DNA of 30,554 bases from a virus (Duplodnaviria > Caudoviricetes): positions 1-30,554 of the IMG/VR virus record IMGVR_UViG_3300030433_001511, one strand, 5' to 3'. The notes below the pieces were generated by a model. It was not told the DNA's origin. It ran no database searches and saw only the letters and a program-made list of their open reading frames with translations. Made by a program: the position numbers and the translations under genes. Positions 107 through 27,115 of this stretch are shown here, piece by piece; the stretch's first letter is position 1, and each line of letters starts with the position of its first letter.

Positions 107-1885
107 TTATGAACCTTCAAGAGCGGTCACACGCGCCAACAAATCGGCGTTCTGGGTTTCAAGCGCCTCAATCCTAGTCTGTGCTTCCTGCAAAGCCTTA
201 ACGGATTTCATATAGAGCACGGAGTAGTTGATTGATTTAATGGAATCCAGTTGGTTTCCATCTGCGTCTAAAACCGTTTCACCTTCTTTAACAGCAGACG
301 TTTCAACTAGCCCAGGAGAAATACTTTCAACTTCCTGAGCAATTAGTCCAATTTGAGTGTGCGTTTCATACCCAGTGTTTTCTCTAAAATTATATTTGCG
401 GATCTGCAATCCTTTGATATCATCCCACTGAGAAGTGGCATCAACAATATTTTCTTTTAGCCTTTGGTCCGAGAGAGACGAGTAAGAGTTATTAGTATTA
501 CTTACGTTACCATTGTTTGTTACCTTAAAGGCGAGAGTTCCAGCACCCATGCTCCCAGAGTTGTTGCGAGCATAGATAAACTCATATGTATTGCCAGCAG
601 ATCGGGTATTCGAAAGATCATAGTTAGTTGACGTTGAAAAATTTTGAGTACCACCGTCGCTTCTTAGCCGCCACGATTCGCTTAAGCTGCCTGAATTGTC
701 ACGGCAAACATAAAAGCTAATTCGTGTTGGTTTGTCATTATTAGCGTGGTTGGCGTCAACAACGGCAGCAATTCTGGCGCATTCTTGATAGCTACCGCCG
801 TCATTTCCGAACCAACCCAAAATTCCAAGGCTTTCACCGGTTGTAGCTGTACTGTCGTTTCTGCCAAGAATGATTCGTGGGGCTTCACTTGTGGCACGGA
901 TTTGAAGATTTGCACCAGAAGTTGTTGTAATTGGACCGTCGGTCCCCGTGTTAATCAATACCCGACCACTTGAATCTATACGAAGTCTTTCTACTTGACC
1001 TGAACTTGGATCTGTTTTAAAAATAAAGTTTTGATTATAACCAGAGGAAATATATGCATCTGCTTGGCTTGAACCAATATCAATTCCATAACCAGAGCTT
1101 TGATGAAATTCTGCAATTTTACCATCAGCATCACCACGACGAACATCCAATCTAGCAGTGGGAGATGCGGTTCCCAAACCCATATCACCACCAGAAGTTA
1201 TACGAAGTTTTTCCGCTGGTGAACCTGCAGATGCATCTAAACCAAAAGTAAGTGAATTTGTGTTATTTGGATGACTACCACAGTCTATAGCCCAACTATT
1301 TCCAAATGCATTCAGAGTGATACCTGCAGATGCAGAAGCATGATTATTATCGTTCTTTACTAATAAATGTGCTCGTCCATTCTTATCTTCTTGAACTATT
1401 GATCTAGAACTCCAATAATCAGAATTTCTCCCTAAAAGTAAATTACCACTAGAATTTATACGAAGTCTTTCTGATCCATTAACTTCAAACTGTAAACCAC
1501 CAGCACCTAATCCATTTACATTAGCAATATTAGAAGCACCAGAGAAAAATTCTATTCCAGAATTGTAACTTGTTGATCCTGATTTTAGTCTTAAGAAACT
1601 ATGAGCAGCAGATGCTTCAAGATAAGACCTTTGAGTTCCACTTGCTACATATGCGTGAATAGGACCAGATGGACTGACAGTTCCGATACCGATCAGACCA
1701 GCAGAAGTTATACGAAATCTTTCCGCAGCATTAGTTCCCAATGTCAATACATTGGCAGAAGGAGATGTAACACTCGCTCCTGTTCCTACAGTAATAAAGT
1801 TACTAGCCTTCAGTTCCGTTGCGGTAACCGTTACTGTAGTTCCACTGCCAATTGGTTGTATAGTATTGACGTTAAGGATACTCAT
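107..1885 (-). CDS. Tail fibre protein with C-terminal intramolecular chaperone (peptidase S74-like) domain
   Basis: 592 aa, G/S/T/N-rich; four ER(L/F)RI/EKLRI-G.VGIGT repeats; SLSDQRLKENI...GLIAQEVE...NYSVLY plus terminal coiled coil typical of S74 chaperones. Confidence 0.85.
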   Translation of the reverse strand: MSILNVNTIQPIGSGTTVTVTATELKASNFITVGTGASVTSPSANVLTLGTNAAERFRITSAGLIGIGTVSPSGPIHAYVASGTQRSYLEASAAHSFLRLKSGSTSYNSGIEFFSGASNIANVNGLGAGGLQFEVNGSERLRINSSGNLLLGRNSDYWSSRSIVQEDKNGRAHLLVKNDNNHASASAGITLNAFGNSWAIDCGSHPNNTNSLTFGLDASAGSPAEKLRITSGGDMGLGTASPTARLDVRRGDADGKIAEFHQSSGYGIDIGSSQADAYISSGYNQNFIFKTDPSSGQVERLRIDSSGRVLINTGTDGPITTTSGANLQIRATSEAPRIILGRNDSTATTGESLGILGWFGNDGGSYQECARIAAVVDANHANNDKPTRISFYVCRDNSGSLSESWRLRSDGGTQNFSTSTNYDLSNTRSAGNTYEFIYARNNSGSMGAGTLAFKVTNNGNVSNTNNSYSSLSDQRLKENIVDATSQWDDIKGLQIRKYNFRENTGYETHTQIGLIAQEVESISPGLVETSAVKEGETVLDADGNQLDSIKSINYSVLYMKSVKALQEAQTRIEALETQNADLLARVTALEGS

Positions 1886-1909
1886 TATCTACTTTTTATT
1901 TGTATTTAT
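1883..1909 (-). promoter_or_regulatory. T4-like late promoter plus leader cassette ATAAATACAAATAAAAAGTAGATAATG
   Basis: ATAAATA box (T4 late consensus TATAAATA) about 17 nt before ATG; identical 27-mer at four loci. Confidence 0.75.
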
Positions 1910-3222
1910 CCAATATAGAAGAGACTTATAGAAAGATCAAAATTTTGAGTTCTACTAGCATATGGATACCAAGTCATTCGTCCATCTATTGCATCATTTG
2001 CACTTAAATTTAAGTAAAACTGTTCAGTAAAAGAGTAGTGAGTATTGCTTGAAGGACAAGCCGCAACAGAATGCCAGTGAGAACTGATAACACCTGAAGC
2101 AGTACCATTAACTCTTGGTACAATACTAATTGCTCTGATACTGTAAGAAGAATTACTTATCATACTCTCCATTCTCATAAAACAACGATACATTCCAGTT
2201 TTTGGAACAATAAGGTTGCCTGAAGAGATAGTATATCCACCACGATTGAAACTGAAAGTATCTACACCCAATTCATGGGTACTACCATCACCACCAGTTA
2301 CACTTTGAGCGTTTTTATATGCCAGACACTCTGCATGATTAAAAGTCTGGATAACTCCATCAGAGTGAATACGCATTCTCTCCGTTCCAACTGTTCCACT
2401 TGATGGTGTTGCAAAAACAAGATCGGCACCACTACCAGAGTTAGCGCCACCAATCTTATTCTCAATATAACAAGTAGCAGCACCTGTCTTAAATTCCAAT
2501 CTACTTGCAGAACCTTGATTTCCGCCACCATTATGTAATTTTAAAAGAGTTACTGGAGTATTATATGGATCTGCATTATTTTTTGTCAGGTGTAATAGTG
2601 TATCTGGATTATTTTGACCGATGCCAACATTACCACTTGATGTGATACGAAGTCTTTCTGTACCTGCTGTTCTAAAAACTTGTATACCAGAAGCACCACA
2701 AGTAAAGTAATTATCTTTGTTTGTACCATGTCCTATATGAAGAATATTAGAACCATCAACTTTAAGATTAAAAATACCATCTGCACCGTTTGGAATGTGA
2801 TTGATTCCTATTCTACCACTTGAATCTATGCGAAGTCTTTCTGTTGTTCCTGAACCACCTTCGGTGAAGAAGGTCATATACTTGGTATTATTACTTCCAC
2901 TTCCGTCTTGTGCCCTTAAACTAACTTCACCATCCGAATCATCTTGATGAATTGCAAAGTGTGTGTTATTAGATTTAACCAATAAATTATCTTGGTCATC
3001 TAGTCCAGTAATTTGAACTGCTCCACTAGATGTTATACGAAGTCTTTCTTCATCATTCGTTCCAAATGTCAGTGTATTTGAAGCTGGAGAAAATATAGAA
3101 CTTCCTGTCCCTAAAACAAAGTTGACACTATCAGTAAATGTTACTGTTCCGTTTGCCGTGCCAATTGCTACATTCGTTCCAGTAGAAGGTACAATTGTAT
3201 TTACTCTTAAACTACTAGACAT
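1906..3222 (-). CDS. Tail fibre protein with probable C1q/TNF-like C-terminal head
   Basis: 438 aa; ERLRI repeats; C-terminal LIVPKTGMYR...LNLSANDAI pattern resembling a C1q-like jelly roll. Confidence 0.7.
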   Translation of the reverse strand: MSSSLRVNTIVPSTGTNVAIGTANGTVTFTDSVNFVLGTGSSIFSPASNTLTFGTNDEERLRITSSGAVQITGLDDQDNLLVKSNNTHFAIHQDDSDGEVSLRAQDGSGSNNTKYMTFFTEGGSGTTERLRIDSSGRIGINHIPNGADGIFNLKVDGSNILHIGHGTNKDNYFTCGASGIQVFRTAGTERLRITSSGNVGIGQNNPDTLLHLTKNNADPYNTPVTLLKLHNGGGNQGSASRLEFKTGAATCYIENKIGGANSGSGADLVFATPSSGTVGTERMRIHSDGVIQTFNHAECLAYKNAQSVTGGDGSTHELGVDTFSFNRGGYTISSGNLIVPKTGMYRCFMRMESMISNSSYSIRAISIVPRVNGTASGVISSHWHSVAACPSSNTHYSFTEQFYLNLSANDAIDGRMTWYPYASRTQNFDLSISLFYIG

Positions 3223-3272: not shown

Positions 3273-4610
3273 CTAACTAATGAAGTAGAATCCATTAAAT
3301 CTTATACTTAAATTGGTGGTTTCAGCTACACTAGCAGTACTAAAGGTATTATAGTTATTACCACTTGTTGCGGTTTGATAATATAATTGTATTAAAGAAA
3401 CTCCAGGTTGCATCTGACCCGTAAGAGTATTGATAGCGTTTGCACCATCTACACCCTGAATACAGAAACTACCACTGATAGCCTGCTGATATCCACCGCT
3501 ATTTCTTGCTGCATATGGCAGTCCATGTACCCACATAGTTGATCCAGAACCGTTCCAATTTGAAGTTGCTAATTCAAAATCAAAATAAACAGTATTTCCT
3601 ACTTTTGTGTAATGTCCTGTTTGTGAAGCATAACTAGGAGAGGGTGAAGAATATGATGAATTACTGTCTCCCCATGATGGAGTAAAAGTGCCCTCCTCAT
3701 AATCGTCCAGGAGTTCAGAAGACATTGTTCCTGAACCATTACCAGTCGCAGAGAAGTCAATACCATGACCATTCGCTACGACCAGGTTTCCATCTAAGAT
3801 TGTTAAATGACCATTGCTATCTATTCTTACATCATCTTCAATACTTCCACTAGCATTCCCACTGCTAACACCAAAAGATAAAATTTTACTGTTCTGAGTG
3901 TTTAGATGAACAATACCTGTGCTATTATTTCTGATAGAAAAAGAAGCATTTGATTGTTTTTGTAAAGCAAAAATATAATCACCAGCAGCATTAACTCTTA
4001 GTTGATTCCCATTCGCAGGGTCAGTTACACCATCACCAATATCAAGTCTGTAGGATGGAACTGCGGTTGCAATACCGACCAGACCGGCAGAAGTTATACG
4101 AAGTCTTTCTGTAGGTTCACTATCGGTAGTATTTGGTCTTGTAGCAAATAGTAAATCTGTTTGTTGAGCACCACCTGCCGCAACAGTTTCAACACCAATA
4201 AATGAAGATGGTTTTTCTCCATAATCTAAACTTTGAGCATAATGGAAACCAATACCACCTCTTTCTCCTACTCCACTTGGTCCATTAAGTCTTAATAACT
4301 GGCATTGAGAGAAGGTGCTTGAATTTGTATTATTAACAATAGTAAGTTTTGGAGGAACCGATCCCAGATTAGTTGCAGTTCCCAGAATCATTTGACCAGC
4401 AGAATTTATGCGAAGTCTTTCTGCACTATTGGTGCTCAGAGTAATTTCATTCGCAGAAGGTGCCGCAATAGTAGAACCCGTTCCTAACCTGATACCAGAA
4501 CTACTTACAAGAACAGAAGAATCATTCTGCAGGTTGATATTGCTGGCAAAAGTAACCGATGATATACCGGTGTCTGCTTCAATTGTATTGACAATAATCT
4601 TACTGGTCAT
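3273..4610 (-). CDS. Tail fibre protein with LDDYEEG-type tip domain
   Basis: Start moved to MTSKIIVNTIE (ATGA overlap with upstream stop), 445 aa; ERLRI repeats; LLDDYEEGTFTP...GHYTKVGNTVY...GLPY tip motif. Confidence 0.75.
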   Translation of the reverse strand: MTSKIIVNTIEADTGISSVTFASNINLQNDSSVLVSSSGIRLGTGSTIAAPSANEITLSTNSAERLRINSAGQMILGTATNLGSVPPKLTIVNNTNSSTFSQCQLLRLNGPSGVGERGGIGFHYAQSLDYGEKPSSFIGVETVAAGGAQQTDLLFATRPNTTDSEPTERLRITSAGLVGIATAVPSYRLDIGDGVTDPANGNQLRVNAAGDYIFALQKQSNASFSIRNNSTGIVHLNTQNSKILSFGVSSGNASGSIEDDVRIDSNGHLTILDGNLVVANGHGIDFSATGNGSGTMSSELLDDYEEGTFTPSWGDSNSSYSSPSPSYASQTGHYTKVGNTVYFDFELATSNWNGSGSTMWVHGLPYAARNSGGYQQAISGSFCIQGVDGANAINTLTGQMQPGVSLIQLYYQTATSGNNYNTFSTASVAETTNLSIRFNGFYFIS

Positions 4611-4846
4611 ACTATCCTCCACTCTCCTCTAATAGTCACCACGTTACTTCCGGTGACGGTTAATGTTCCGGCACTTACCGCGTTTGTGCCTGCGGGTATT
4701 GTTACGTTTTCGTCTATGGTTTTCTTATTAGTCTTGATCACACCATAGCGATCCATCCACTGTCGAGCACCATTGGCAGCAATGGTATCTTTAAATTCTG
4801 TAGTTGCTGCTCTAGAATCAGCAGTATTAAAAATCAGTTTAGTCAT
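4607..4846 (-). CDS. Small fibre-associated/adaptor protein (79 aa), paralog of 4843-5082
   Basis: Start moved to MTKLIF (ATGA overlap); colinear with neighbour (TEFKDTI.ANG..QW.D.YGVIKTN); ends NAVSAG...EWRIV. Confidence 0.7.
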   Translation of the reverse strand: MTKLIFNTADSRAATTEFKDTIAANGARQWMDRYGVIKTNKKTIDENVTIPAGTNAVSAGTLTVTGSNVVTIRGEWRIV

Positions 4847-5082
4847 ACGATAGACCAATCTCCATTAACAGTGACAGAATAACCACTAGCAATAGTGATT
4901 GGTCCAGCAGATAAACCATTCGTATCAGAAGGAATAGTTACGTCTTCGGCAATGGTGGTGCGATTTGTTTTAATAACACCATAAGAATCCACCCACTGCT
5001 TATCACCATTGGCAGTAATAGTATCCTTAAACTCCGTTGCCGTAGTCGTAGAATCAATAATATTTGCCTTTATGGTGGACAT
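4843..5082 (-). CDS. Small fibre-associated/adaptor protein (79 aa)
   Basis: Late-promoter cassette upstream; ends NGLSAGPIT...DWSIV. Confidence 0.7.
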   Translation of the reverse strand: MSTIKANIIDSTTTATEFKDTITANGDKQWVDSYGVIKTNRTTIAEDVTIPSDTNGLSAGPITIASGYSVTVNGDWSIV

Positions 5083-5084
5083 AG

Positions 5085-5108
5085 TATCTACTTTTTATTT
5101 GTATTTAT
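5085..5108 (-). promoter_or_regulatory. T4-like late promoter cassette (24-nt copy)
   Basis: ATAAATACAAATAAAAAGTAGATA upstream of ATG at 5082. Confidence 0.7.
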
Positions 5109-6613
5109 GAGTTGGTTGTATAGGAACCACAGAACTGAATAACCAGGTGTGTTTGACTACTGCTAATATTTACATTATTTTTATTCTTAAGGTAATCATT
5201 ATCACCATCATCTTTGTAAATATAAACTTGAGCATGATTTTGTCTAAATGTAACTGCCATGTTTCTATAAGTATCATCAATAGTTCTTGTTCCTGTTATT
5301 GAAAATCCACCAGCTTGATTGGGAACATATGGTAAGGTTGCAATCTGACTAGTATTCTCATTATTTCTAAGTTCTACAGTAACACCAGTGCTGCTTCCAG
5401 TGTTTGCAGTATAAAGATATCCACTCACATAAACTCTGTTACCAATTTTAGTATATCTAACACTTGTGTCACTATTATTAGAACCTGATCCAATAGAATT
5501 ACTTCTTTGTAGTCTCCAACCAATTGTTCCCTCTTCATAATCGTCGAGAGCGTTTGCAGCAGCTGTGTCACCGTTGAAGGTTATACCACCTGTATTAAGG
5601 ATACGCATCCTTTCTGCACCCGCAGTACCAAATCTAAGTTGATCAGTAGTATGGTTATATCTAATAAATCCTCTGTAAGTAGCATCACCAGAAGTTCCAT
5701 CAGCATAATAAAGATTACCATCACCATTGGTAGCAGAAACAATTGATAACCCACAAGTTCCACTAGTATTAGCAACTGCCAGTTTCACACTACCACCATA
5801 TGAGTTTGGATCAACTGTTCCTAAACCCATCTGACCAGCAGAAGTTATAGTAAGTTTATCTCCAGTTACAAGACTATTACCGTCAGGAGTTCCATATCCA
5901 ATATCAAGTTCTCCACCATTTCTTGCAGAAATTGCCCAATAATCAGTTGTCGAGTCATTTATATTCTGCATGAGCAGATGACTAAACCTATTAACTCTTA
6001 GTCTTCCTTCACTTTGTACAATATCTACACCATTTAGTGGATTTTCGGTTCCGATACCGACATTGCCATTATGATCTATACGAAGTCTTTCTGATCCTGT
6101 TGCACTTATATTATTACCAGTGCCAAAGACTAAAGCTGATCCGCTTCCAGAAGTATTACTTTCTACATGAATGTTTGCTGCACCCTTGTCTACACCCCCA
6201 CTTGATTCTCTAACAAAAAAGATTCCAGAATGATTACCGTTTCCTGAATTTTGAAGTTCTAGGATTGCATCACCACCATTTTTTTGTAAATGTAATACAT
6301 TACCAGGATTATCAGTTCCAATACCAACATCACCACTAAACGTAGAGTCACCACTAACAGTTAAGTTTGTTGGTTCAATGGTTCCTACAAATTTTGTTGC
6401 AGTAATAATACCAGTGACTACAACATTACTATTCTGATCAAATTTTATATTACCTGCAGTCGTGTTGATACCAATGGTTGTGATACCAGAAGTCTTTCCA
6501 TCAATGTGAACAAGAATATCACCATTGGAGTTTGTTAGTTTTATCTTTTCATCTACTGTTGGGCTTGAGGGATCTGCCTTTGCCTCAATGTTAGTAATAC
6601 GGAGAGTACTCAT
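5105..6613 (-). CDS. Tail fibre protein with LDDYEEG-type tip domain
   Basis: 502 aa; VGIGT.NP and ERLRI/ERMRI repeats; NALDDYEEG...RYTKIGNRVY. Confidence 0.75.
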   Translation of the reverse strand: MSTLRITNIEAKADPSSPTVDEKIKLTNSNGDILVHIDGKTSGITTIGINTTAGNIKFDQNSNVVVTGIITATKFVGTIEPTNLTVSGDSTFSGDVGIGTDNPGNVLHLQKNGGDAILELQNSGNGNHSGIFFVRESSGGVDKGAANIHVESNTSGSGSALVFGTGNNISATGSERLRIDHNGNVGIGTENPLNGVDIVQSEGRLRVNRFSHLLMQNINDSTTDYWAISARNGGELDIGYGTPDGNSLVTGDKLTITSAGQMGLGTVDPNSYGGSVKLAVANTSGTCGLSIVSATNGDGNLYYADGTSGDATYRGFIRYNHTTDQLRFGTAGAERMRILNTGGITFNGDTAAANALDDYEEGTIGWRLQRSNSIGSGSNNSDTSVRYTKIGNRVYVSGYLYTANTGSSTGVTVELRNNENTSQIATLPYVPNQAGGFSITGTRTIDDTYRNMAVTFRQNHAQVYIYKDDGDNDYLKNKNNVNISSSQTHLVIQFCGSYTTNS

Positions 6614-8602: not shown

Positions 8603-9118
8603 TTAATCTCCTAACTCTAATACTAAAAGTGAACTTCTTGAGGTGTTTGTGTTATAACCACTATCACTTCCTCTTGGTCGATTCAAATATAAACCATTAA
8701 CGTTTTCACAAGAAAACCTCACTCTATATCCTGAGTTTGTAGATGGAAAGTCAAATTCATATATTGCAGTCCATTGACAAGTTTGTTTATCTTCAACTGT
8801 GCTAGATCTTGCTATTGACCAGTCACCAAATGAACCACGATAATTACCACTACCACCAGGACCCGTAGCACCTCTCATCTCATCTCTAGCTTGCCATGAT
8901 CCATTATTATAATATTCAATATATCCTGATGCGTCATCGTTTGCAGCACCATTAATAGTTGCAAATACAATATGTTTACTCGCTGTGGTGTGAGTAGTGA
9001 AAGTCAGTGATAAAAAAACAGCACCACCCTGCGATGTAGTGAAATGAAATCCAGTATCTGATGTATAGTGAGTATTTAAAACAGCGTGTGTTTTAGTGCT
9101 GCCATGATATAATGCCAT
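8603..9118 (-). CDS. Short fibre tip / receptor-binding-like beta-sandwich protein
   Basis: 171 aa; TAATG coupling to 9118-10590; ends SSLLVLELG like the 12390/12872/13795 paralog family. Confidence 0.55.
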   Translation of the reverse strand: MALYHGSTKTHAVLNTHYTSDTGFHFTTSQGGAVFLSLTFTTHTTASKHIVFATINGAANDDASGYIEYYNNGSWQARDEMRGATGPGGSGNYRGSFGDWSIARSSTVEDKQTCQWTAIYEFDFPSTNSGYRVRFSCENVNGLYLNRPRGSDSGYNTNTSRSSLLVLELGD

Positions 9119-10590
9119 TAACCCACCTCCGTTAGATTGAACTTATATTTCTTACCATTACGTCTATTTATTAAGAATAAATCATTTTCACCTTCTTGAA
9201 TGGTGTATTTACCCCAAGTTCCATCCACATCATTTGCAGAACCTTCATTAGACATTTGAAGGTCAGCAGTATAAATGTTTCGCCAACGAAGTGAAGTGGA
9301 GCCTAAGTCCACAGAGTTGTCTGAACCGGGAGCTAAGGTGTGATAGGAAAGGTTCCCGGTGGTACGAACCCTGAAGCACTGCTGGTTATTGGCCCAAAGC
9401 TCTAGAATACCATCACCGTTTTGACGAATGCCAGTATCACCATCTCCAATTGCAATCGCCTTACCATTAGGAAAACTATTATGTGGAGTAACATTACCAA
9501 TTCCAATATCACCATTGGAAGTTATACGAAATCTTTCTGTTCCACTTGTTCCTGTTGCAATTATAAATATTCCACTATCAATCTTAAATGAAGCGTTAGC
9601 ACTAGTAGATCTATAATTTGCTTTAATTACTGATGTAGTCGAACCAGAGTTATTATATTGAAATTCTAATCCAGTTGCACTAGTACCACTACCACCAATT
9701 TTTATCGTTCCACCAGTACCATTTCTGACCTGGAAATCAGTTTCTGGAGTGCATCCTACACCCATCTTACCATCAGAAATGATACGAACTCTTTCATTAG
9801 ATGCAGTTACAAACGCAAGAGTGTCATCCGCTGGTTTGTGAATACCAGCACCAATCGTTGGAGTGGAACTTGCACCAGCAAGTAGGAATGCGTTACTTGA
9901 ACCATTAGTTTCAACAGCACCATAGAATGTTGACTTACCAGCAGAATCTATACGAACTCTTTCTGATCCGGCAGTTTTAAATCTCATGTAATCGCCATTA
10001 TGCGAATACTGAATTTCACCCCTGTCTGCAGTATCATCCTCAAATAGAATTGTACCAGCAGCAGTGGTTCCACTACGAATAGTAATACCAGCGTTTGCTG
10101 AGTCTGCAATCGTTAATTGCTCGCCAGCCGTAGGACCAACAGACGTTGTGCCCAACATCATGCGACCACTAGAATCTATGCGAAGTACTTCTGTACCCTC
10201 AGTTGTGACTTTTATATGTCCATCTGAACCAGTATCTATGGTTTCGACTTTTGTATTACCAGTTTCAATCTTTGTGCTATCAACAGATATACCTGTTAAT
10301 TGTGAACCATCACCTCTATAACTTGTTGCTGTGATGACTCCAGCATTACCTAATTTTATATTACTTCCTACATCTAACTGACCACCACTGACATTCACAC
10401 CTGCTCTAGCAGTTATAACACCAACTGAATCAATATTGGTTACGTCTTGATATGTTAATGTACCACCGATGGATACATCTCCTGTAAAGTTAGCGGAAAC
10501 CGCAGTTACGATACCCGTAGAGTTGATATTGTGAGTATCATAATTTTCGTTTGCCTTAATGACTCCACGAGTAATCTTTGTAAGTGCCAT
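9118..10590 (-). CDS. Tail fibre protein
   Basis: 490 aa; MALTK start; TLTYQDVTNIDSVG module; four E.(L/V/F)RI repeats; C-terminal DLGSTSLRWRNIY...TIQEGENDLFLIN domain. Confidence 0.75.
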   Translation of the reverse strand: MALTKITRGVIKANENYDTHNINSTGIVTAVSANFTGDVSIGGTLTYQDVTNIDSVGVITARAGVNVSGGQLDVGSNIKLGNAGVITATSYRGDGSQLTGISVDSTKIETGNTKVETIDTGSDGHIKVTTEGTEVLRIDSSGRMMLGTTSVGPTAGEQLTIADSANAGITIRSGTTAAGTILFEDDTADRGEIQYSHNGDYMRFKTAGSERVRIDSAGKSTFYGAVETNGSSNAFLLAGASSTPTIGAGIHKPADDTLAFVTASNERVRIISDGKMGVGCTPETDFQVRNGTGGTIKIGGSGTSATGLEFQYNNSGSTTSVIKANYRSTSANASFKIDSGIFIIATGTSGTERFRITSNGDIGIGNVTPHNSFPNGKAIAIGDGDTGIRQNGDGILELWANNQQCFRVRTTGNLSYHTLAPGSDNSVDLGSTSLRWRNIYTADLQMSNEGSANDVDGTWGKYTIQEGENDLFLINRRNGKKYKFNLTEVG

Positions 10591-10612: not shown

Positions 10613-12361
10613 TCAACCTTCAAGGGAAGTGACTCTTGCTTCAAGAGTTTCAATCTTAGCGATTGCTTCTTTAAGTGCTGCAGCTAAGAGAGGAGTAATT
10701 CTTCCATAATCAGCAGCTTGTGGTTTAATGGAACCGTCTTCTCTTACAGCATCTTTTTCACCATCAACTGCATCAGGACATACTTCACCCAATTCATGTG
10801 CAATCCACCCATCTACAGTTCCTAGTGATGGATTGTTTCTCCAAGTATGCCTAACAGGATTTAATTGCTTGACACGAGTTATACCATCTGTTATTGAAAC
10901 AATATTATCTTTGAGTCTATAGTCAGAACTTGTATGATAAGTTACGTTGCTTTGATTGTCTTTAATTCTTCCAGTTTCCTGATTACCGTTTGAGTAATTA
11001 GAGAAATATATGTGGTCTCCTGAACTACCGCCAGCACTTGAAATATATGCATAATTTGCAGTGGTGCCTTTAACGTTCATTCCATTTCTACCAGAGGAAG
11101 ACGCATCTATATTAAAGAATCCTCCATGTGGACCTTGACTTGTTGTGGCATAGTAGAACTTTCCATCACTCCCTATCCTCATTCTTTCTGTCAATCCTGA
11201 GTTTGGACTACCATTTGCGCTTTTAGATGCAAAGACTAAATCACCACCCCAACCCGATTTGCCTTGTGCAAATACTGATCCAAGAATTGCTTCTTGACCA
11301 TTAGTTTGCCTAATAATATAGCGAGTGTGCCGTGTATCCTCGTTTGGCATACTTGCAACACCTTCACGGCGAATCTGCAAATGACCATCTGAGTCGATAC
11401 GAGCTCTTTCTGAACCATTAGTTTTAAATCTCATGTAGTCGCCATTATGATAATATGAGATGTCACCAGCTGCGCCACCAGAATCCTTAAACTCAAGATA
11501 GTTTGTTCCTGTTGTACCTGTAGTTCTAGACTGTAAGAAAGTATCTCCACTACTTGTTATTGAGATACCATCTCCACCATGAACATCAAGTTGTGAATTT
11601 GCAGTTACATCACCAATAGCAACTCTACCATTAGAAAGTATACGAAGTCTTTCTGTAGTATTAATTAAGAATGTAATAGGATGATTGCTTCTTCCATGAA
11701 TTTGATTTTCAGATGCCTTTGCTTCGAATCTTAAATGTCCAGCAGAGTTAGATTCATCGCCAAGTGAGAAGACCGCAGAACTAGAAGAATAAGATAATCT
11801 TGCTCTTTGTGTTCCATCAATTTTGAATTTAATCTCTGATCCTCTTATTCTTAGAGGAACATTAGCAGACCCAGCATCATTATACGCCTCTATTGATGCC
11901 TCTGAACTATCGGCAGATAAAGCTATATTGGCATTTGTTGCTGTTTTTACTTGGAACTGTGAGAGTGGAGTGCAATTGACACCAACCAGACCACCAGAAG
12001 TTATACGAAGTCTTTCTGTTCCGGCAGTATCAACAGCAAAAGTGTTATCGGCAGGGAACCGCATTGCAGTATCGGTGTCCCCGGTATGAATAATCTTATC
12101 GGCAATATCTACGTTGCCACTAAACGTTCCTGTGGCACCACTGATGTTTCCAGTTACATTACCAGTGATGTCACCATTAAAAGCATTATTAACAAATAAA
12201 TTATTAGCAGTTATAACACCAACATTCAATACGGCAGTGTTTGCCGCACTAACAACAATAGAAGGATTCGTGGTTCCGATTCCGATATTGCCGATATGAT
12301 CCTGCGAAACACCACCGGTCCCAGATTGATGTAACCACTGATTAAAACGGATATCAGACAT
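10613..12361 (-). CDS. Tail fibre protein with C-terminal peptidase S74-like chaperone domain
   Basis: 582 aa; ERLRI repeats; TSSDYRLKDNI...GWIAHEL...DYGRITPLL plus coiled coil. Confidence 0.85.
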   Translation of the reverse strand: MSDIRFNQWLHQSGTGGVSQDHIGNIGIGTTNPSIVVSAANTAVLNVGVITANNLFVNNAFNGDITGNVTGNISGATGTFSGNVDIADKIIHTGDTDTAMRFPADNTFAVDTAGTERLRITSGGLVGVNCTPLSQFQVKTATNANIALSADSSEASIEAYNDAGSANVPLRIRGSEIKFKIDGTQRARLSYSSSSAVFSLGDESNSAGHLRFEAKASENQIHGRSNHPITFLINTTERLRILSNGRVAIGDVTANSQLDVHGGDGISITSSGDTFLQSRTTGTTGTNYLEFKDSGGAAGDISYYHNGDYMRFKTNGSERARIDSDGHLQIRREGVASMPNEDTRHTRYIIRQTNGQEAILGSVFAQGKSGWGGDLVFASKSANGSPNSGLTERMRIGSDGKFYYATTSQGPHGGFFNIDASSSGRNGMNVKGTTANYAYISSAGGSSGDHIYFSNYSNGNQETGRIKDNQSNVTYHTSSDYRLKDNIVSITDGITRVKQLNPVRHTWRNNPSLGTVDGWIAHELGEVCPDAVDGEKDAVREDGSIKPQAADYGRITPLLAAALKEAIAKIETLEARVTSLEG

Positions 12362-12389: not shown

Positions 12390-12872
12390 TTATCCAGAGA
12401 CTTCCATAACTGTTAAAGTCCACCTACAATTGGCGTGAGTTATGTAAGCAGTTGCAGATCCATTATGAGACCTACCATATATTGTATATGTTACAGCACT
12501 TGTTGTATTCGGAGCGTCAAAGACACTAAATGTACCTTGTGCTGTCACAGTTTCAGAAGCACTATAATTTCCAACCATAGATAACCCATAAGTTGCATGA
12601 CCTATATTAGTAGTATCATTACGATAAATTGTTGTATATGAACTTCCTGCTTGAGTATTTGGTTGTTGAGATGGAGAACTCCAACATATGAAAAATTTAC
12701 TATCGCTCCTGGTTGGTGTGATAGTAACATCAATACCCATATCCACAAAACCAGTGGAAGTTGTGGTTTTTGCGTCAGTTCCTGTGACATGTTTCATCTG
12801 AACAATGCCACCACTCGCACCAGCAGGTAGTCCGTCTCTTGGGACGATTCTATTTGTTCTTAATTCTGACAT
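12390..12872 (-). CDS. Short fibre tip / receptor-binding-like protein
   Basis: 160 aa; MSELRTNRIVP...GGIVQ...ITPTRSDSK...D.PNTTSAVTY...LTVMEVSG. Confidence 0.65.
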   Translation of the reverse strand: MSELRTNRIVPRDGLPAGASGGIVQMKHVTGTDAKTTTSTGFVDMGIDVTITPTRSDSKFFICWSSPSQQPNTQAGSSYTTIYRNDTTNIGHATYGLSMVGNYSASETVTAQGTFSVFDAPNTTSAVTYTIYGRSHNGSATAYITHANCRWTLTVMEVSG

Positions 12873-18840: not shown

Positions 18841-19497
18841 TCAACCTAAAATAACTGAACCAGTGGGGAAATAATCCGTGATTATCTCTACCCATGATGT
18901 CCCATCAAAATACTCTAAGGCATTATTGGTGGTGTTCTTCCTTATGTATGGTGCCGAACCAGAAGGTCTTTGTGCTGTGGTGCCTTGTGGTAGTGCTACA
19001 GCACCTGTTTTTGTAGAAGCATCAAGATCTGTTTTTGGTGCTGTTGATGAGATACCAACCGAACCAATTCCCGTTATACGAAGTCTTTCAGAACTATCAG
19101 TTTCTACAGTAAATGTATCCGCAGCAGGGAATCTTATAGCAGTATTGGTATCACCAGTGTGTATGATTTTATCTGCAATCGATACATCACTTCTAGCAGT
19201 TATAATACCAACCGAATCAATGTTAGTTACGTCCTGATATGTTAAAGTTCCTGCAATACTTACAGTGGTGGCAGAAAGAGTAGTGGCAGAAATAGTGCCA
19301 GCATTTAACTGTCCAGTGAACGTAGATACACCAAGAACATTTAAACTAGTAACTCCAACACCAAGAAATGTTGTTACTCCTGCAATATTAGCATCGAAGT
19401 TTATATTATCAGCAAACGTCGTAATGCCACTAAACGTAGCATTATAAAAGGTTGATACACCTGTAATAGAACCCGATCCTTCAATAGATACTGACAT
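18841..19497 (-). CDS. Fibre shaft/adaptor protein
   Basis: 218 aa; TLTYQDVTNID and IADKIIHTGDT modules; one ERLRI; GTTAQRP...NTT...LEYFDGTSW motif. Confidence 0.65.
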   Translation of the reverse strand: MSVSIEGSGSITGVSTFYNATFSGITTFADNINFDANIAGVTTFLGVGVTSLNVLGVSTFTGQLNAGTISATTLSATTVSIAGTLTYQDVTNIDSVGIITARSDVSIADKIIHTGDTNTAIRFPAADTFTVETDSSERLRITGIGSVGISSTAPKTDLDASTKTGAVALPQGTTAQRPSGSAPYIRKNTTNNALEYFDGTSWVEIITDYFPTGSVILG

Positions 19498-19506: not shown

Positions 19507-19893
19507 TTAGACTACGGACCAGACACTTCCGGCAGGTATGGTGACCGTAACATTTGCTGCCAAAGTTATGGGTCCTGCACTCATAGCATTTTTACCAGGC
19601 GAAATCGAATACGATTGAGCAACTGAAATATCATTTTCATAAAAAACTTTATCAGTTCCTGCCCCGACTGCGCCGCCTGATCCACCGGCAATACTAATGT
19701 CAACGTTTCCACCAGACACGGCAAAAGTATTGCCGGCACCGATGAAGTTCAACGATGTGATAATACCACTGTGAATTGCAGTTCCAGCAGAACTAATACC
19801 AATACCTTTTAGACCACCAGTAGCAGTGATAACACCAACATGAATGTCGGTTGTCTCGCTTATACCATAGCCTACAAGTTTAGTAAATGCCAT
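19507..19893 (-). CDS. Small fibre adaptor protein
   Basis: 128 aa; LNFIG.GNTFAVSG..VDISI module shared with 6639-8171; ends NAMSAGPIT...WSVV. Confidence 0.65.
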   Translation of the reverse strand: MAFTKLVGYGISETTDIHVGVITATGGLKGIGISSAGTAIHSGIITSLNFIGAGNTFAVSGGNVDISIAGGSGGAVGAGTDKVFYENDISVAQSYSISPGKNAMSAGPITLAANVTVTIPAGSVWSVV

Positions 19894-19928: not shown

Positions 19929-22319
19929 TTATTTGATTAACCAAAGATCCTTCCCTGCAATGGTTTTGATATATTTCCAGTTGGGGTGTTTAGGACTATC
20001 ATTTCTGACTCTAACTTTTCCAAGTAAACCAACTATACCCCATTCTCTTCTCTCATCTCTTGGAACATATGCTTGAGATGAATCATATGTGGAAGATTCA
20101 ATATATCTATGATGAATTCTTCTAGATGCATCGTCTGGAACAACCACATCAGAAGGAACATCATTTTCATCTGCATAGGAATGCTTAGTGCCATCAGCGT
20201 CTTTCCATGACACTTGAGTTACTTGCTCTTTTCTGCGCGTCCCCCATTCATCTATTTCATATCTACCTTGCCAATCATACACAGCAGCATCACCAATTAT
20301 AGCTGCGGTTCCTGATATTACACCAATGATATCAGAGGTGCTTGTTTCACTAGTTGCTTTTTCAATTTTACCGTTAGCATTAAGAAATACTGAATATCCA
20401 CGACGATCTTCATTGTTTGGATTTCCATCTTCCCATTCAAAGTATTCAGCGTAGTCATAATTGTTCTGACTTAATGAACCATCAAAATATGCATTACCAC
20501 CAACATCAAGGTCAAAAGTAAATCTTTTCGAACCAGCCCCAATAAATACATATTCATTTGGATTGCCGTCACTAGAGACACGTCGATACGCAGCGCCGGT
20601 ACTGCCAGCCCAAAAAGTACCCCATCCGTTATTACCACCTATCCAACCTTCGTAGAAAATATCAGCCCAAGCATTCCAATCATTTTTCAGTGCCGTACCA
20701 GCAAAATCATCACCATCCCCCGAAGCAGGGTTGGACGATATAGGTCCAGTCTTCTCGATACGCATCCTCTCGACTGCTTCGTTAGGACTTTCACTACGTG
20801 TTGCAAATGCAAGGAAGAAATCCTTATTAGCATTAGATCCATTTAGTTTGCCACCATAAATGGCAGCACCGTCTAATGGGACATCAGGACTTGTTCTGTA
20901 CTTGGTTGAGAATACAATTCCTGCTCGTGGAGAAGATCCAAAAGCAGTTGTGTCATTGAAAATTCTCAATTGACCTTTTACATCTCCAGTTCCGTTTGCA
21001 TTTGTATCAGCTCCGTGTACGTCTAAGGGTATTGCGGGAGCATTTGTCCCCAGACCCATAAAACCACTAGAAGCTATACGAAGTTTTTCAGACATACCAT
21101 TAGCGGTATCTGTCCAAAACTGAAGCGAGGCGTTGCCACTCGCATCTTCGGCTTGTGAGACTATTGCACTATCAGCTGCAGCACCTGATGTTTTTGAAGT
21201 CAGTGAAATAGATGCTTGAGTTGTAGTACCTGAGGTATCGGCATTTTCTACTCTCAATACTGAGTCACTGGGATTGATAAAAGAATCAGTAAAACTATCT
21301 ACAACATACAATCTATTACCACCACCATTAGTATCGGTTCCTACAAGCAAATCACCAGCAGTAGTTATTTCTACTTTACCATCAGCAGTAAGACTTGGGT
21401 CGGATGTACTATTATATGCAATGACATAATTATTATTTGTTAAATCAATTCCATGACCCCAAGTATTACCTGAGGCATTCTCAAACATCATAACAGCATC
21501 ACCAGCTCCACCACTGGTGATTAATACTCTGGTATCACTACTACCTTGAATGTGCAATTCGTGATATGGATTATTTGTCCCTAAGCCTACAAATCCACCC
21601 GATTCGATACGAACTCTTTCCGTATTATTAGTTCCAAAACGTAAAGGTGTATTTTCTTGATTGAAAATTCGTCCATGCTCATTGCTATCGATACCAACAA
21701 GCAATCCATTATTACCACCTTCACCCGTTGTTGTATTCGTGAATCTTATCTGAGATTCGTCACTACTACCTCTGTGTATGCTGAGCATACTATTGGTATT
21801 GATAACCTGAGCACCGATAGTGACACGTCCGTCTGACCTAATACGAAGTCTTTCTGAGTTGTCTACATTAAATCCAAGATAACTATTAGCAGCACTGTTA
21901 CCCTGATCAGCATTTAATATCAGTACGCCATCATTGTCAGCATAAATTTGTGAATGAGCACCAGTTCCTCCAAGATATATTTGACCATTTGATGCAGATC
22001 CTTTTACGTGTAGATTGACTGATGGATTATTATGCCCTACAGCAACATTTCCACCAGTGACATGAACACCTGCCTGTGCAGTGATAATACCAACAGAATC
22101 AATATTAGTTACGTCCTGATACGTTAATGTACCACCAATGGAAACATTGCCGGTTACTGTTAATGCTGCGACGGTTGATATTCCTGATGTTGCATTGAGG
22201 TTTGCACCATCAATCATCAGACCACCTTGTGTTCCATCAGACTTAAATATCTTAATCTCGTTTGCTTGGGCAGTTATACTATTGATGCCCGAAACACTAT
22301 TTGGTCTAATTACCGTCAT
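19929..22319 (-). CDS. Tail fibre protein with C-terminal peptidase G2-like autocleaving chaperone domain
   Basis: 796 aa; ERLRI-type repeats; DYAEYFEWEDG...IIGVIS...YVPR..R.EW..VGLLGKVRVR. Confidence 0.8.
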   Translation of the reverse strand: MTVIRPNSVSGINSITAQANEIKIFKSDGTQGGLMIDGANLNATSGISTVAALTVTGNVSIGGTLTYQDVTNIDSVGIITAQAGVHVTGGNVAVGHNNPSVNLHVKGSASNGQIYLGGTGAHSQIYADNDGVLILNADQGNSAANSYLGFNVDNSERLRIRSDGRVTIGAQVINTNSMLSIHRGSSDESQIRFTNTTTGEGGNNGLLVGIDSNEHGRIFNQENTPLRFGTNNTERVRIESGGFVGLGTNNPYHELHIQGSSDTRVLITSGGAGDAVMMFENASGNTWGHGIDLTNNNYVIAYNSTSDPSLTADGKVEITTAGDLLVGTDTNGGGNRLYVVDSFTDSFINPSDSVLRVENADTSGTTTQASISLTSKTSGAAADSAIVSQAEDASGNASLQFWTDTANGMSEKLRIASSGFMGLGTNAPAIPLDVHGADTNANGTGDVKGQLRIFNDTTAFGSSPRAGIVFSTKYRTSPDVPLDGAAIYGGKLNGSNANKDFFLAFATRSESPNEAVERMRIEKTGPISSNPASGDGDDFAGTALKNDWNAWADIFYEGWIGGNNGWGTFWAGSTGAAYRRVSSDGNPNEYVFIGAGSKRFTFDLDVGGNAYFDGSLSQNNYDYAEYFEWEDGNPNNEDRRGYSVFLNANGKIEKATSETSTSDIIGVISGTAAIIGDAAVYDWQGRYEIDEWGTRRKEQVTQVSWKDADGTKHSYADENDVPSDVVVPDDASRRIHHRYIESSTYDSSQAYVPRDERREWGIVGLLGKVRVRNDSPKHPNWKYIKTIAGKDLWLIK
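22099..22138. repeat. 40-bp exact repeat, copy 1 (other copy 26856-26895)
   Basis: tcaatattagttacgtcctgatacgttaatgtaccaccaa at both loci; encodes GGTLTYQDVTNID. Confidence 0.9.
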
Positions 22320-23243: not shown

Positions 23244-24926
23244 TCAACCTACAAGATAACCCATAAAATAAGTATGAGCTCCATACTGATCGTTGTTTAT
23301 GTTGTAATAACATGTTCTACCAGTATTTTGATCAGAATAAAGTTCTATCGTATCCCCAACAGACAATGACTCCATGATAGAAATAGTCAATGATTCATCA
23401 CTTCCATTTGTATCACAAGCAGCGGTACATAACTGAATAGCACTACCACTTGATGTTTTTCTAATTTGAACTCTAAAGTCACCATCACCAGAATTATAAT
23501 ATACTTGACCGAAGAAGTAATATATTCCTGCAGTTGGAGCGGTAAACTTATAAGTTGAAGTATTCCAACAGTTTCCAACATTTATTCTTGCAACATTAAA
23601 AGGAAATGTTCCTAATGTAAAAGTTTGATTACCACCGGTTCTACCAACAAGGAATGCAGGGTTATCAGGTTTTGTTACAGATCCATTTGAATGAAGAATA
23701 AGTCTTTCTGTAACAGTACCTCCTTCTGGTTTTGTCATAAGCTGCATATATGCACCAGCATCATTACTTGCATTACCATCAGAGGTGGTTATTTTTGCCT
23801 GAATAACAGCAGACAATTTCATTGTATTTCCAGGACCTGACCCAGAATTATTATCATTATTAAACCAAATAGTTCCAATATCTCCATTATCACTACCAAC
23901 TCTACCACTCAAAGAAAGAATACCTCTCTTACCAGCAGTAGCACCACCATAGATATCAAGAATTACATTACTGGATCCAGTGTCATCATAAGTATAAGCA
24001 CTATGACCACCAAGAAGTAAATCGCCACCAGAAGTTATACGAAGTTTTTCAGAACGAACACCACCTCCTCTGTTTTGAAAAGCAATATCAGTATTACCAT
24101 CTACAACTTCAGTTGCAGTAATAGCAGCCTCACCATTGCCCCCAATTTGAAAGAAAATCCCTGCCGACTTATCATTAGTTGTGTTTTCAATTTTCAGGAA
24201 GTTGTAGTCTGCAGTATCACTTCCACCACTATAAGCGGTGCTTGAAGCCGCTTTTAAATGAAGCAGTCTGTCGGGTGAATTCTCACCAACACCAATCTTA
24301 CCATCAGAAGTTATACGAAGTCTTTCTCCAGAGTTTGTTACAAATCTAAGGTCATCATCAAATAACTCTATATTACACTCTGTTCCAGTTTCAACATTAT
24401 TTCTGAATACAATACGACTTCTATTAGTTTGAGATGCTTCAACAACTAATGGAGTGTTGCTGGTTGTGCTATCAATGTGAGTTTTAGCACCTGGATTTAC
24501 AACTCCAACACCAATATTTCCAGCAGAAGTTATACGAAGTTTTTCTCCACCATTTACAGCAAGGATTAGTGCATTGCTTGAGTGGCTGTATTGAAGTTGA
24601 CCAACGTTATTAGAATCGCCGTCAGCAAATTGAATGAAAGAATTATGAGCTGAAGTGCCTAAAATTCTTAGGATTGGATTAACAGTGGTATCAGTTCCAA
24701 CAATTACAGTTCCATCAGATGCTATACGAAGTCTTTCTGCATTGTTCGTTCCCAACGTTACAGTATTAGACGCTGGTGAAAATATAGATCCGCCCGTTCC
24801 TACATTAAATCCCGAGTTGTCCTGAAAAGTCGTGATACCAGAAAAGATCGGACCAGTATCTGTAAAAGTTACAGTGCTCAGTCCTGTTCTACTGGACAGT
24901 GAATTAACGCGAATTTCAGACGACAT
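23244..24926 (-). CDS. Tail fibre protein with C1q-like C-terminal domain
   Basis: 560 aa; four E(R/K)LRI repeats; PAF.V...FN...N.GN.WN.STYKFTAPTAGIYYF...LSVGDTI...FMGYLVG. Confidence 0.8.
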   Translation of the reverse strand: MSSEIRVNSLSSRTGLSTVTFTDTGPIFSGITTFQDNSGFNVGTGGSIFSPASNTVTLGTNNAERLRIASDGTVIVGTDTTVNPILRILGTSAHNSFIQFADGDSNNVGQLQYSHSSNALILAVNGGEKLRITSAGNIGVGVVNPGAKTHIDSTTSNTPLVVEASQTNRSRIVFRNNVETGTECNIELFDDDLRFVTNSGERLRITSDGKIGVGENSPDRLLHLKAASSTAYSGGSDTADYNFLKIENTTNDKSAGIFFQIGGNGEAAITATEVVDGNTDIAFQNRGGGVRSEKLRITSGGDLLLGGHSAYTYDDTGSSNVILDIYGGATAGKRGILSLSGRVGSDNGDIGTIWFNNDNNSGSGPGNTMKLSAVIQAKITTSDGNASNDAGAYMQLMTKPEGGTVTERLILHSNGSVTKPDNPAFLVGRTGGNQTFTLGTFPFNVARINVGNCWNTSTYKFTAPTAGIYYFFGQVYYNSGDGDFRVQIRKTSSGSAIQLCTAACDTNGSDESLTISIMESLSVGDTIELYSDQNTGRTCYYNINNDQYGAHTYFMGYLVG

Positions 24927-25169: not shown

Positions 25170-25174
25170 AATTT

Positions 25175-27115
25175 TTAGTAATAAGAATGGAACATGATTC
25201 TAAATCCAGCATTGTTACTGCTGCTATAATGACTGGTTGCTTTTATTTGTAAAGTCCAAGGACCACTATTATTTCTTAATTGGAAAGATACTGAACCAGT
25301 ATTCCAAGCACCATTCATAAATCGTTGTGAAAGGTTATTCACACCATATGCAGGACTAGTTAGACTGTATTGATATTGGAAAATATTTTTAGATGATGCA
25401 TCTCCACAATATCCATGGAACAATCCGTTAGAATCATTGATACTATGAAGTAAATCGTGCCAAGTATTATTACATGGAACACTTCCCATCACCACCCATG
25501 TACCAGTGAAATGTGGATAACTAGGAATTGTTGCGCTGGCAAGAGCGCCAAGTGAATATGGGTTTGAAAAACTACCACCACCAGAAGTAGTGCTAATCCT
25601 GTAACCATTATTTACTATCATTCCATCATTGTCTATTCTAGCCCTTTCTGTTCCATTAGCTGTCTCAAATCTTATGTAATCACCTGATTGTAGAGCACCT
25701 ATTTGAAGACCATTAGCATCACCAAATATTCTACCATAAATGTTTCCATCACTTCTTTCAAAATCAATACCTGAACCAGTTACTGCTCCTGCTCCACCAA
25801 TAGTTAATGTCGTATAATTACTGAATGTATTTGCATCCATTCCACCGATAGAAACATCACCACCAGATTCGATGCGAAGTCTTTCTGCATTGTTTGTGTA
25901 AATCTGTATATCGGCGTTTTCTCTTTGTATTAAATTAACAGCACTACTACTACCATCAATACTCAAAGTAAATCCATCACTAGCAGTATGTCCAGTATTA
26001 GCAGTGGTCATATGAAGTCTGACTGGATCACCAGAAGTAGTCTCACCAATATGAAGTGCTGTATTTCCAGGCGCAATTGGGGTTACACCCAATCCCATAT
26101 CACCACTTTTTAAGATAGTAAATAAAGTTGAATTATCATTTTGAACTCTGAATATTTGAGAAGTAGCGGAAGTTTGACCTAATACATTAACTCTAAGACC
26201 AGAAGATGCATTAGTTGCCTCTGTAGTAATGACTGGTGCATTATTTCTTAAATGTAAGATATCTGCTGGAGCATCAGTTCCTATACCAACATTACCATCA
26301 GAATTTATACGTAACTTTTCATCAGATATTGACACTCCAGTAGCATCATTACTTGATCTGAATGCAAAGATCATATCAAGATCATTGTAAGAATCTTGTC
26401 TCTGAACAAAGATACCTGCTTTTGAGTAATCACCAGTGCTACCACCAGCAACAGCAAACTTAATTCCAGTGTAACTCGTATTAGCAGTTGAACCAGTTGA
26501 TGTTAAATGAACTGTAGGATCCGAACCCCATATTAAGAGGTTTGGAGAACCATGATTAGTTGGTGTTTTTCCACCCTGTGCAATACGACCACTGGAATCT
26601 ATACGAAGTCTTTCTGCTGCGTTTACAGTAAATGCAAGATAATTTGATGCATGGTTATATCCAAGCATACCTACATCTTCATCATTCTCATCTGCAAACA
26701 TCAGATTGCTTGTTCCGTTTGATGCACCCTCTATAAGGATTACACTATTAGTCGCATCATGAACAGTTAAATTTCTACTGTGTGTTGCACCACCTATATC
26801 TACATTACCACCAGTAACATCAATACCATTGCGTGCAGTAATGATACCAACCGAGTCAATATTAGTTACGTCCTGATACGTTAATGTACCACCAACAGAC
26901 ACGTTGCCTGTGAAGTTAGCAGAGGCGGCAGTTACTATTCCAGTGGCATTAATATTAGTACACTCATATCCAGTACTATGAACATTACTGGTTCCCGACT
27001 TAAAGTTAGATGCTGTAGCAACACCAGTGACATTTACTTCGGCAAGATCTTGAATGCTAAAAGATCCATCAACCGCACTTATCCTATCAGTTTGTCCGTT
27101 TATCTGGATACCCAT
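25175..27115 (-). CDS. Tail fibre protein
   Basis: 646 aa; TLTYQDVTNIDSVG module; four E.(L/A)RI repeats; distinct aromatic-rich C-terminal tip. Confidence 0.75.
   Translation of the reverse strand: MGIQINGQTDRISAVDGSFSIQDLAEVNVTGVATASNFKSGTSNVHSTGYECTNINATGIVTAASANFTGNVSVGGTLTYQDVTNIDSVGIITARNGIDVTGGNVDIGGATHSRNLTVHDATNSVILIEGASNGTSNLMFADENDEDVGMLGYNHASNYLAFTVNAAERLRIDSSGRIAQGGKTPTNHGSPNLLIWGSDPTVHLTSTGSTANTSYTGIKFAVAGGSTGDYSKAGIFVQRQDSYNDLDMIFAFRSSNDATGVSISDEKLRINSDGNVGIGTDAPADILHLRNNAPVITTEATNASSGLRVNVLGQTSATSQIFRVQNDNSTLFTILKSGDMGLGVTPIAPGNTALHIGETTSGDPVRLHMTTANTGHTASDGFTLSIDGSSSAVNLIQRENADIQIYTNNAERLRIESGGDVSIGGMDANTFSNYTTLTIGGAGAVTGSGIDFERSDGNIYGRIFGDANGLQIGALQSGDYIRFETANGTERARIDNDGMIVNNGYRISTTSGGGSFSNPYSLGALASATIPSYPHFTGTWVVMGSVPCNNTWHDLLHSINDSNGLFHGYCGDASSKNIFQYQYSLTSPAYGVNNLSQRFMNGAWNTGSVSFQLRNNSGPWTLQIKATSHYSSSNNAGFRIMFHSYY
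26856..26895. repeat. 40-bp exact repeat, copy 2
   Basis: Identical to 22099-22138. Confidence 0.9.

Follow-up and report, generated by a model that had tools for sequence, protein, structure and literature searches.

In-frame exchange of phage fibre modules at a short codon-locked joint

The DNA analysed here is the IMG/VR record IMGVR_UViG_3300030433_001511, which is the window itself (the whole stretch of 30,554 bases) and has its genes on the minus strand. Ten of these genes encode fibre proteins divided into modules by a short conserved peptide, ERLRI or a close variant of it, and we concentrated on the 15-bp word that encodes this peptide as a candidate site for the exchange of fibre modules. 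In total, 30 in-frame junctions of the form E[RK][LMVF]RI occur in the ten open reading frames (ORFs), all on the minus strand, from 977 to 26614, with the consensus GAA AGA CTT CGT ATA followed by ACT TCT nnT GGT; the median length of a module between strict motifs is 95 amino acids. An earlier sequence-only reading of the window had spoken of about 30 copies of GAAAGACTTCGTATA. This number is right for the junctions, but the exact 15-mer is present in only 11 of them; 11 copies differ from it by one base, three by two bases and five by four or five.

The first of the fibre genes, at 107..1885 (592 amino acids), has four junctions (1723, 1471, 1213 and 991; here and below, the first base of the word on the minus strand) and ends in an S74 autochaperone tip (PF13884, E=1e-12); its segments 1456-1723 (94%, locus L272) and 981-1164 (92%, L329) are common to relatives. 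The gene at 1906..3222 (438 amino acids) also has four junctions (3048, 2841, 2658, 2382), and its module 2371-2658 recurs at 90% in a different gene of L068. Two junctions are found both in the gene at 3273..4607 (4421, 4109), with one degenerate joint, and in the gene at 5105..6613 (502 amino acids; 6091, 5614), with a degenerate DKLTI. The gene at 9118..10590 (490 amino acids; 9963, 9795, 9537, and EVLRI) has its tip, from the 9537 junction on, in common with L047 (89% over 243 nt), and the gene at 10613..12361 (582 amino acids; 12016, 11653, 11188, and ERARI) carries an S74 tip according to Pfam. The short gene at 18841..19497 (218 amino acids) has one junction (19089). The longest, at 19929..22319 (796 amino acids), has four (21854, 21620, 21089, 20771) with one degenerate joint and a Peptidase_G2 tip by Pfam; in the relative L058 its N-terminus is kept (97%) and its modules and tip are different. 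The gene at 23244..24926 (560 amino acids; 24737, 24545, 24326, 24050) consists of an anchor (24738-24926), four modules (24546-24737, 24327-24545, 24051-24326 and 23709-24050) and a C1q tip (23244-23708), and each of these parts occurs separately in homologs. The last gene, at 25175..27115 (646 amino acids), has three junctions (26614, 26320, 25885) and degenerate ones. The tips therefore vary among the ten genes: S74 twice, Peptidase_G2, C1q, and others that Pfam leaves unnamed.

The claim of the sequence-only reading that the codons of the word are fixed was confirmed. All 16 ERLRI copies are spelled GAA AGA CTT CGY ATH, and four of the five EKLRI copies are spelled GAA AAA CTT CGT ATA. When the remainder of these genes is taken as background, CTT encodes Leu in 20/21 cases (background 31%), CGY encodes the second Arg in 29/30 (background 20%) and ATA encodes Ile in 22/30 (background 25%). 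The first Arg uses the commonest codon, and CGY and ATA are minority codons in the fibre genes. The chance of this spelling is 0.029 per copy and 3e-25 over 16 copies if these are independent; because of their common descent they are not. Where the word deviates from the consensus, the substituted codon is mostly one base away from it (AAA, GTT, TTT).

Other conserved positions of the fibre proteins use varied codons, unlike the word. Gly at +8 is invariant (30/30), with the codons GGT in 20, GGA in 8 and GGC in 2 cases against a background of 56/32/7%; the residues +11 to +14 are at background codon use; Leu-Arg pairs outside the motif are CTT-CGY in 5/33; and in the S74 motif SDxRLK of related loci Leu is CTT in 1/16. 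These within-gene controls, together with the CGC-ATC spelling that dominates other genomes against their own codon usage, rule out genome-wide or codon-pair bias as the cause of the fixed codons. Both comparisons, with codon bias and with other conserved motifs, had been proposed by the sequence-only reading as checks. As a separate observation, all four ERMRI copies (20757-20771, 11174-11188, 5600-5614 and 2368-2382) represent the last strict junction before the tip of the gene; since they are 4-5 bases off the consensus, the tip-proximal joints may stem from another pool or have left the exchange.

Breakpoints of mosaic alignments were mapped in 273 sources (272 loci and the window), in which 272 of 454 motif ORFs were left after removing duplicates and contained ORFs. 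A breakpoint was defined as an internal end of an alignment of at least 88% identity over at least 150 nt, and it was regarded as near the motif at -15 to +50. By this definition, 131 of the 231 distinct internal ends lie near the motif, 88 of them in both partners and 43 in one, where 7.8% would be expected (p=5e-82); this is the enrichment in relatives that the initial proposal had predicted. Left alignment ends peak at -1/0 and right ends at +11 to +15 and +27. For the window genes alone, 12/14 ends are at the motif, against 15% expected.

A flank test that is independent of alignment ends gave the same picture. The 534 junctions include 5 pairs with both flanks in common, 161 with the upstream flank only and 42 with the downstream flank only, so that linkage across the motif is kept in 5/208 pairs. 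Flank clusters with more than one partner make up 48/52 upstream and 36/40 downstream. When the anchor was moved from the motif into the modules, both flanks were shared in 27/47 (+105), 22/27 (+135) and 32/61 (-150) pairs.

The same loss of linkage is seen in single proteins. A separate protein search (119 homologs) found the individual parts of the gene at 23244-24926 over their full length at 72-100% identity, but the protein that carries a given part also carries its native next module in only 1/24, 0/3, 0/6, 1/28 and 1/18 cases. One homolog, P0006, links the anchor of this gene to a module of the gene at 25175-27115 and then to the third module of 23244-24926, and several separate protein clusters show identical novel orders of modules. 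In L058, a syntenic relative with 95-99% identity in the shared parts, the N-termini are kept and what follows them is replaced. In the module library, 321 modules form 292 clusters at 80% identity, with a Chao1 estimate of ~1,800. Breakpoint enrichment, linkage loss and whole-module sharing together bear out the in-frame exchange of shaft modules and tips postulated by the sequence-only reading.

Since most of the loci are metagenome assemblies, the mosaics might be assembly chimeras formed at a short repeat, an explanation that we find hardly credible. Single Logan contigs with zero differences span six window junctions (9795, 9963, 11653, 20771, 21089 and 24545), which argues against chimeras at those six, although the runs concerned are possibly the source samples. 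The recurrence of new arrangements in separate protein clusters and the presence of the word in near-complete genomes point the same way, and codon locking cannot arise from chimerism. Tables of joints in Logan contigs, many of them at motif coordinates, were not used as evidence; the shorter side of these joints is 20-34 bases and may belong to other organisms or repeats.

The position of crossovers was mapped for the ATA spelling only, on 24 + 14 independent pairs. For the upstream flank, linkage is 0.97 at -15..-10 and drops to 0.73 (-3..-1), 0.28 (+4/+6) and ~0.1 further on (0.07 at +11/+14); for the downstream flank it climbs from 0.13 to 0.66 (+15..22) and 1.0 (+30..35). In this small sample, the stepwise change suggests a crossover zone rather than one bond. 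Many of the high-identity pairs differ up to -1/-2 and are identical thereafter, or are identical to +14 and then differ; such sharp edges bound these events to the core. Roughly two thirds of the exchanges fall in the 15-bp core, the rest reaching out to +30 with some just upstream, which gives a zone of about -6 to +30, or some 30 bp.

The word is an enriched crossover site, as was proposed, but it is not the sole one. Self-comparison revealed a second repeated crossover zone at 22045..22151 on the minus strand (GTLTYQDVTNIDSVGIITA), with similar copies near 26802-26908, 19192-19245 and 10382-10478. L058 switches at the motif in one gene and at the second repeat TYQDVTNIDSVG in three (breakpoints 22077, 26835 and 19184), and it switches also at the GxxGIG loop. 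In the second repeat (TYQDVTNIDSVGIITA) the codons are partly fixed, with Val as GTA in 25/28.

On the protein side, a profile of 80 homologs matches the Bdellovibrio fibre Bd2133 (8OND, E=2e-17) and 8OML (E=8e-11), and the profile alignment pairs ERLRI-xSxG-xxGIG with ERMRI-DTSG-NLGLGT of Bd2133. In a monomer model of the gene at 23244-24926 (pLDDT 70), all four motifs form beta strands, each placed directly after another strand; the C1q fold of the tip was the sole return of fold searches. The alignment with Bd2133 and the modelled beta strands suggest that the joint is probably a seam in the structure at which crossovers preserve the fold. According to the available parts of PMC10769870, the Bdellovibrio MAT proteins form trimeric fibres of intertwined beta-helices in which a capping loop is repeated, and their tips, S74 or TNF-like, can replace one another. 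Of these features, a VG(G/N)xxxP capping-loop shaft (by profile match) and S74 and C1q tips are found here. The likeness to the MAT fibres of 8OND and 8OML extends to the joint peptide ERMRI-xSG-xxGxGTxxP, the S74 or TNF/C1q-like tips, the many paralogs and, by homology, a beta-rich trimeric shaft. The MATs, in contrast, are cell-surface proteins; they have a signal peptide and a conserved N-terminal domain of 130 amino acids, and in those parts of PMC10769870 the loop is treated as structural, without mention of a DNA crossover site.

In other genomes, the exact 20-mer is present in at least 121 IMG/VR stretches, and of 458 distinct core copies, 457 are in frame with the coding sequence. A codon-blind scan returned 114 distinct ERLRI copies with many spellings, from which it follows that the peptide does not need these codons; the same variety rules out a universal site across viruses. 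Among loci that use the window's form of the word, the 61 with at least three junctions are divided into ATA (46), ATC (13) and mixed (2). Background use of ATA is higher in the ATC loci (39%) than in the ATA loci (26%), so that the spelling runs counter to codon bias. In the complete genome G008, Ile is ATC in 19/19 junctions (fibre background 15%) and Arg is CGC in 13/19 (background 4%), and the difference from the window is significant for both sites (p=1e-8 for ATC, p=3e-5 for CGC). Two silent changes common to many junctions of one genome indicate that the copies are being homogenised.

These data bear on two explanations which do without exchange driven by DNA identity. According to the first, protein selection alone places the breakpoints, only the survivors of illegitimate recombination being seen, and the codons are a relic of an ancestral repeat. 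The joint is indeed a conserved structural element, found in the Bdellovibrio fibres also, and breakpoints occur at degenerate joints that lack the word. However, silent sites are fixed amid unalignable flanks, whereas invariant glycines and SDxRLK vary in codon; whole genomes have switched two silent sites over many junctions, which needs homogenisation; and most exchanges fall in the DNA-conserved 15 bp, not across the longer conserved peptide. We regard this explanation as improbable, and it is already largely disfavoured. According to the second, the spelling is kept for expression, either to make ribosomes pause at the boundaries of domains so that the trimer can fold or as a protein or RNA binding site. 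It would agree with the nearly exclusive location of the core in coding frame and with the minority codons CGY and ATA. It is very improbable, as the spelling varies among genomes and lineages, the first Arg has the commonest codon, and neither breakpoints nor linkage loss are predicted by it.

Segments shared between loci are about tenfold fewer across spellings (3/598 locus pairs) than within them (77/1035 and 4/78), and this scarcity fits either isolation of hosts or a barrier set by the word. In two cross-spelling cases, L329 versus window 981-1164 and L054, the shared segments begin at the GIG loop and end at +11 of the next motif, so that each genome retains its own spelling. Loci of other viral lineages (L184, L148, L197, L192 and L194) have the same joint in locally repeated but different spellings. 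At the sparse sampling available, no segment of at least 150 nt at 85% identity or more was common to different spelling pools. The 7 loci that a scan of 185,579 species returned for the word include no cyanobacterial record, and on this ground a host chromosomal copy was rejected as a candidate. In a Firmicutes metagenome-assembled contig (L660/L661), the 20-mer pattern is matched exactly at three places, two of which are separated by 54 bases.

Short repeated sites diversify host-recognition proteins in frame in Cre/lox, Rci shufflons, Gin/Cin inversion, integrons and diversity-generating retroelements, and part of the core resembles one arm of the Cre site. A lox-like site was ruled out: the word has no inverted partner arm (best mean match 0.46), and all 30 window copies are direct repeats. 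In line with the sequence-only reading, no recombinase was found in the window among 25 proteins scanned with Pfam, and none was named among 31 by PHROGs. In five motif-bearing records which are 97-100% complete and have 1 to 18 copies each, neither tyrosine nor serine recombinases (PF00589, PF00239; 0/5, with positive controls working) nor reverse transcriptase (PF00078; 0/5) were detected. A RecA-family (RecA/UvsX) match is present in all five, in four over the cut-off, and G008 also carries UvsY, UvsW, gp46/47-like, gp32 and gp59. No recombinase was named among the 150 G008 ORFs scanned with Pfam (of 165 ATG-started ORFs of at least 90 amino acids). An HNH endonuclease of G008 (L401:17126-17569) is located immediately upstream of several clustered motif copies; its relatives occur in 12/272 loci, and none is named in the window.

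The sequence-only reading had left the choice between a microhomology and a recombinase site. Microhomology fits the data; a recombinase site is not supported, in view of the spread of crossovers, the lack of an inverted partner and the absence of matches to the three families in the five near-complete genomes. A sequence-specific factor, whether a host enzyme or a phage recombinase or nickase that has escaped recognition, might nevertheless bind the word and start or make the exchange, with the two spellings as incompatible site variants. The concentration of some two thirds of the exchanges in a very short core, spellings that are near all-or-none per genome, the rarity of cross-spelling sharing and the two cases that stop at +11 with the spelling retained speak for it, as does the likeness of part of the core to a Cre arm. 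Still, we hold such a factor to be unlikely: the near-complete genomes contain no match to the families searched, G008 has no named recombinase, the sites are direct repeats without an inverted arm, and crossovers are spread and occur at the second repeat too. Moreover, no cyanobacterial copy was among the loci returned, ERLRI is spelled differently in other lineages, and separation of hosts or lineages can account for the low cross-spelling sharing. One can imagine, with little probability, a dedicated sequence-directed cut-and-rejoin system whose enzyme belongs to no known recombinase family, which would use some two thousand module types as in-frame cassettes and in which spellings would split the ocean module pool.

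In our reading, the word codes for a conserved strand where two fibre modules meet. Modules and tips have been swapped there in frame between genes and between related phages, probably by general recombination or template switching over 15-30 bp, which would also keep the spelling uniform. Protein selection would first have conserved the ERLRI-xSxG-xVGIG strand and loop, because only crossovers there give a foldable trimer, and the seam would be the only point at which otherwise unrelated modules have DNA in common and a hybrid can fold. A homology of 15-30 bp may be used by the general T4-type recombination of the phage or by template switching. As crossover points vary, the central bases would pass between modules and become homogenised by concerted evolution, with the flanks remaining unalignable. 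Copies that match the local spelling might pair and swap more often, which would reinforce this spelling, and separate gene pools would drift to separate spellings, CGT-ATA and CGC-ATC. The outcome of such exchange would presumably be new receptor-binding fibres, and the combinatorial host-range library proposed by the sequence-only reading may be its consequence.

Several points weigh against this interpretation. Protein selection by itself would also lead one to expect breakpoints at a structural joint, and 100 of the 231 ends lie away from the strict motif; of a random 25 of them, many are at degenerate joints or other repeats. The identical run between unrelated junctions has a median of 11 bp, reaching at least 15 bp in 33% and at least 27 bp in 2%, and runs of 11 bp are short for UvsX strand exchange. 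The crossover map is noisy, with 38 pairs only. The loci were picked by exact-word scans, partly seeded on ATA, so that the proportions of spellings are biased, and some homologs in the protein search are fragments. Two other spelling pools, with few related pairs, gave both, upstream and downstream flank sharing of 1/3/3 and 0/2/1. Finally, the mosaics are known from assembled contigs alone, where ongoing shuffling and its rate are not visible.

The principle of such exchange is already known in T4-type phages. Reportedly, Tetart described in 1998 recombination at conserved motifs in the T-even distal tail-fibre and gp38 adhesin genes. In the accessible parts of PMC3157838, exchanges in these genes are placed within or near conserved motifs. 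The fibres studied here resemble the T-even adhesins in having hypervariable segments between conserved motifs, exchanges in or near the motifs and, as hosts of the genes, phages of the T4 superfamily. They differ in that whole shaft modules move among at least 10 paralogous genes, changing in order and number, and in that the joint is locked at silent sites with genome-level spellings; the same parts of PMC3157838 report no codon-level analysis. No gp38 homology was seen, as Pfam and PHROGs gave only generic tail-fibre families, without a direct comparison of gp37/gp38 profiles.

The PeSL cassettes of the T4-type phages RB49 and phi1 offer a second parallel. The sections of PMC2839356 available to us report variable crossovers and no recombinase, and cite patches of <50 bp as enough. 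As here, dispersed short direct repeats serve as sites of modular shuffling with variable crossovers, general T4 recombination genes and no integrase; unlike here, PeSLs lie between genes, combine a promoter with a stem-loop, shift complete ORFs and are associated with excised mini-circles, whereas in the fibre genes a coding joint of 15-30 bp moves domains in frame. In E. coli phage tailspikes, a 44-nt motif of ~63% identity, found once per gene, was proposed as a hotspot, and the portions of PMC10408124 at hand state no correlation of this motif with recombination events. The two cases have in common the DNA conservation at an anchor/domain boundary and the proposed role as a recombination hotspot; the present word differs as a near-identical 15-mer which is present up to 4 times per gene and for which breakpoints are mapped. 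Unlike site-specific systems and diversity-generating retroelements, the fibre genes show no inverted sites or silent cassettes, neither a recombinase nor a reverse transcriptase was found, and no single crossover point is apparent in the 38 pairs mapped. For cyanophages, the parts of PMC1079782 seen (P-SSM2/P-SSM4) cite fragment swapping for fibres and name no joint. No prior description of the word, its codon locking or its spellings, or of exchange on this scale, was found in the open-access literature, supplements (e.g. MAT Supplementary Fig. 18) lying outside this scope. To the known principle we add a test of linkage, a map of the crossovers and a pair of spellings that run against codon bias.

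Beyond the fibre genes, the region 27146..30302 (minus strand) contains six tRNAs, including Arg(TCT), a cyanophage OMP-like gene (28157-28528) and a transaldolase (29256-29900). Together with the tail-fibre PHROG matches, these genes are consistent with the window being the fibre region of a T4-like cyanomyophage. No close cultured relative was found, the best DNA matches spanning 3% of a 7.3-kb query. A 1234-amino-acid Laminin-G/DUF7483 gene at 15126-18830, compared with L058 1-2719, is also mosaic, with blocks of 88-92% between replaced blocks, and has no ERLRI joint. Two tandem small paralogs (4607-4840 and 4843-5082; 95 nt at 76% DNA identity) have their match at the far C-terminal end of a 3319-amino-acid tail-fibre family, and 6639-8171 and 19507-19893 end in a similar tail. 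Several small genes (160-175 amino acids) with mostly unnamed domains lie amid the fibre genes at 12390-14319 and 8603-9118; they are beside a tail assembly chaperone (13400-13765), and one of them matches a tail-fibre C-terminus, so that they may be stand-alone tip domains.

For the biology of T4-like cyanophages, the presented analysis supplies a defined crossover address for the question of how these viruses build and vary many fibre genes, and it accounts for part of the hypervariable fibre region in marine viromes. It also provides a natural library of in-frame modules and a silent two-letter marker of gene pools. The joint makes it testable whether conserved fibre motifs are kept for structure or also for evolvability. 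If the exchange reading is true, the fibre genes would represent a mix-and-match kit for host recognition.

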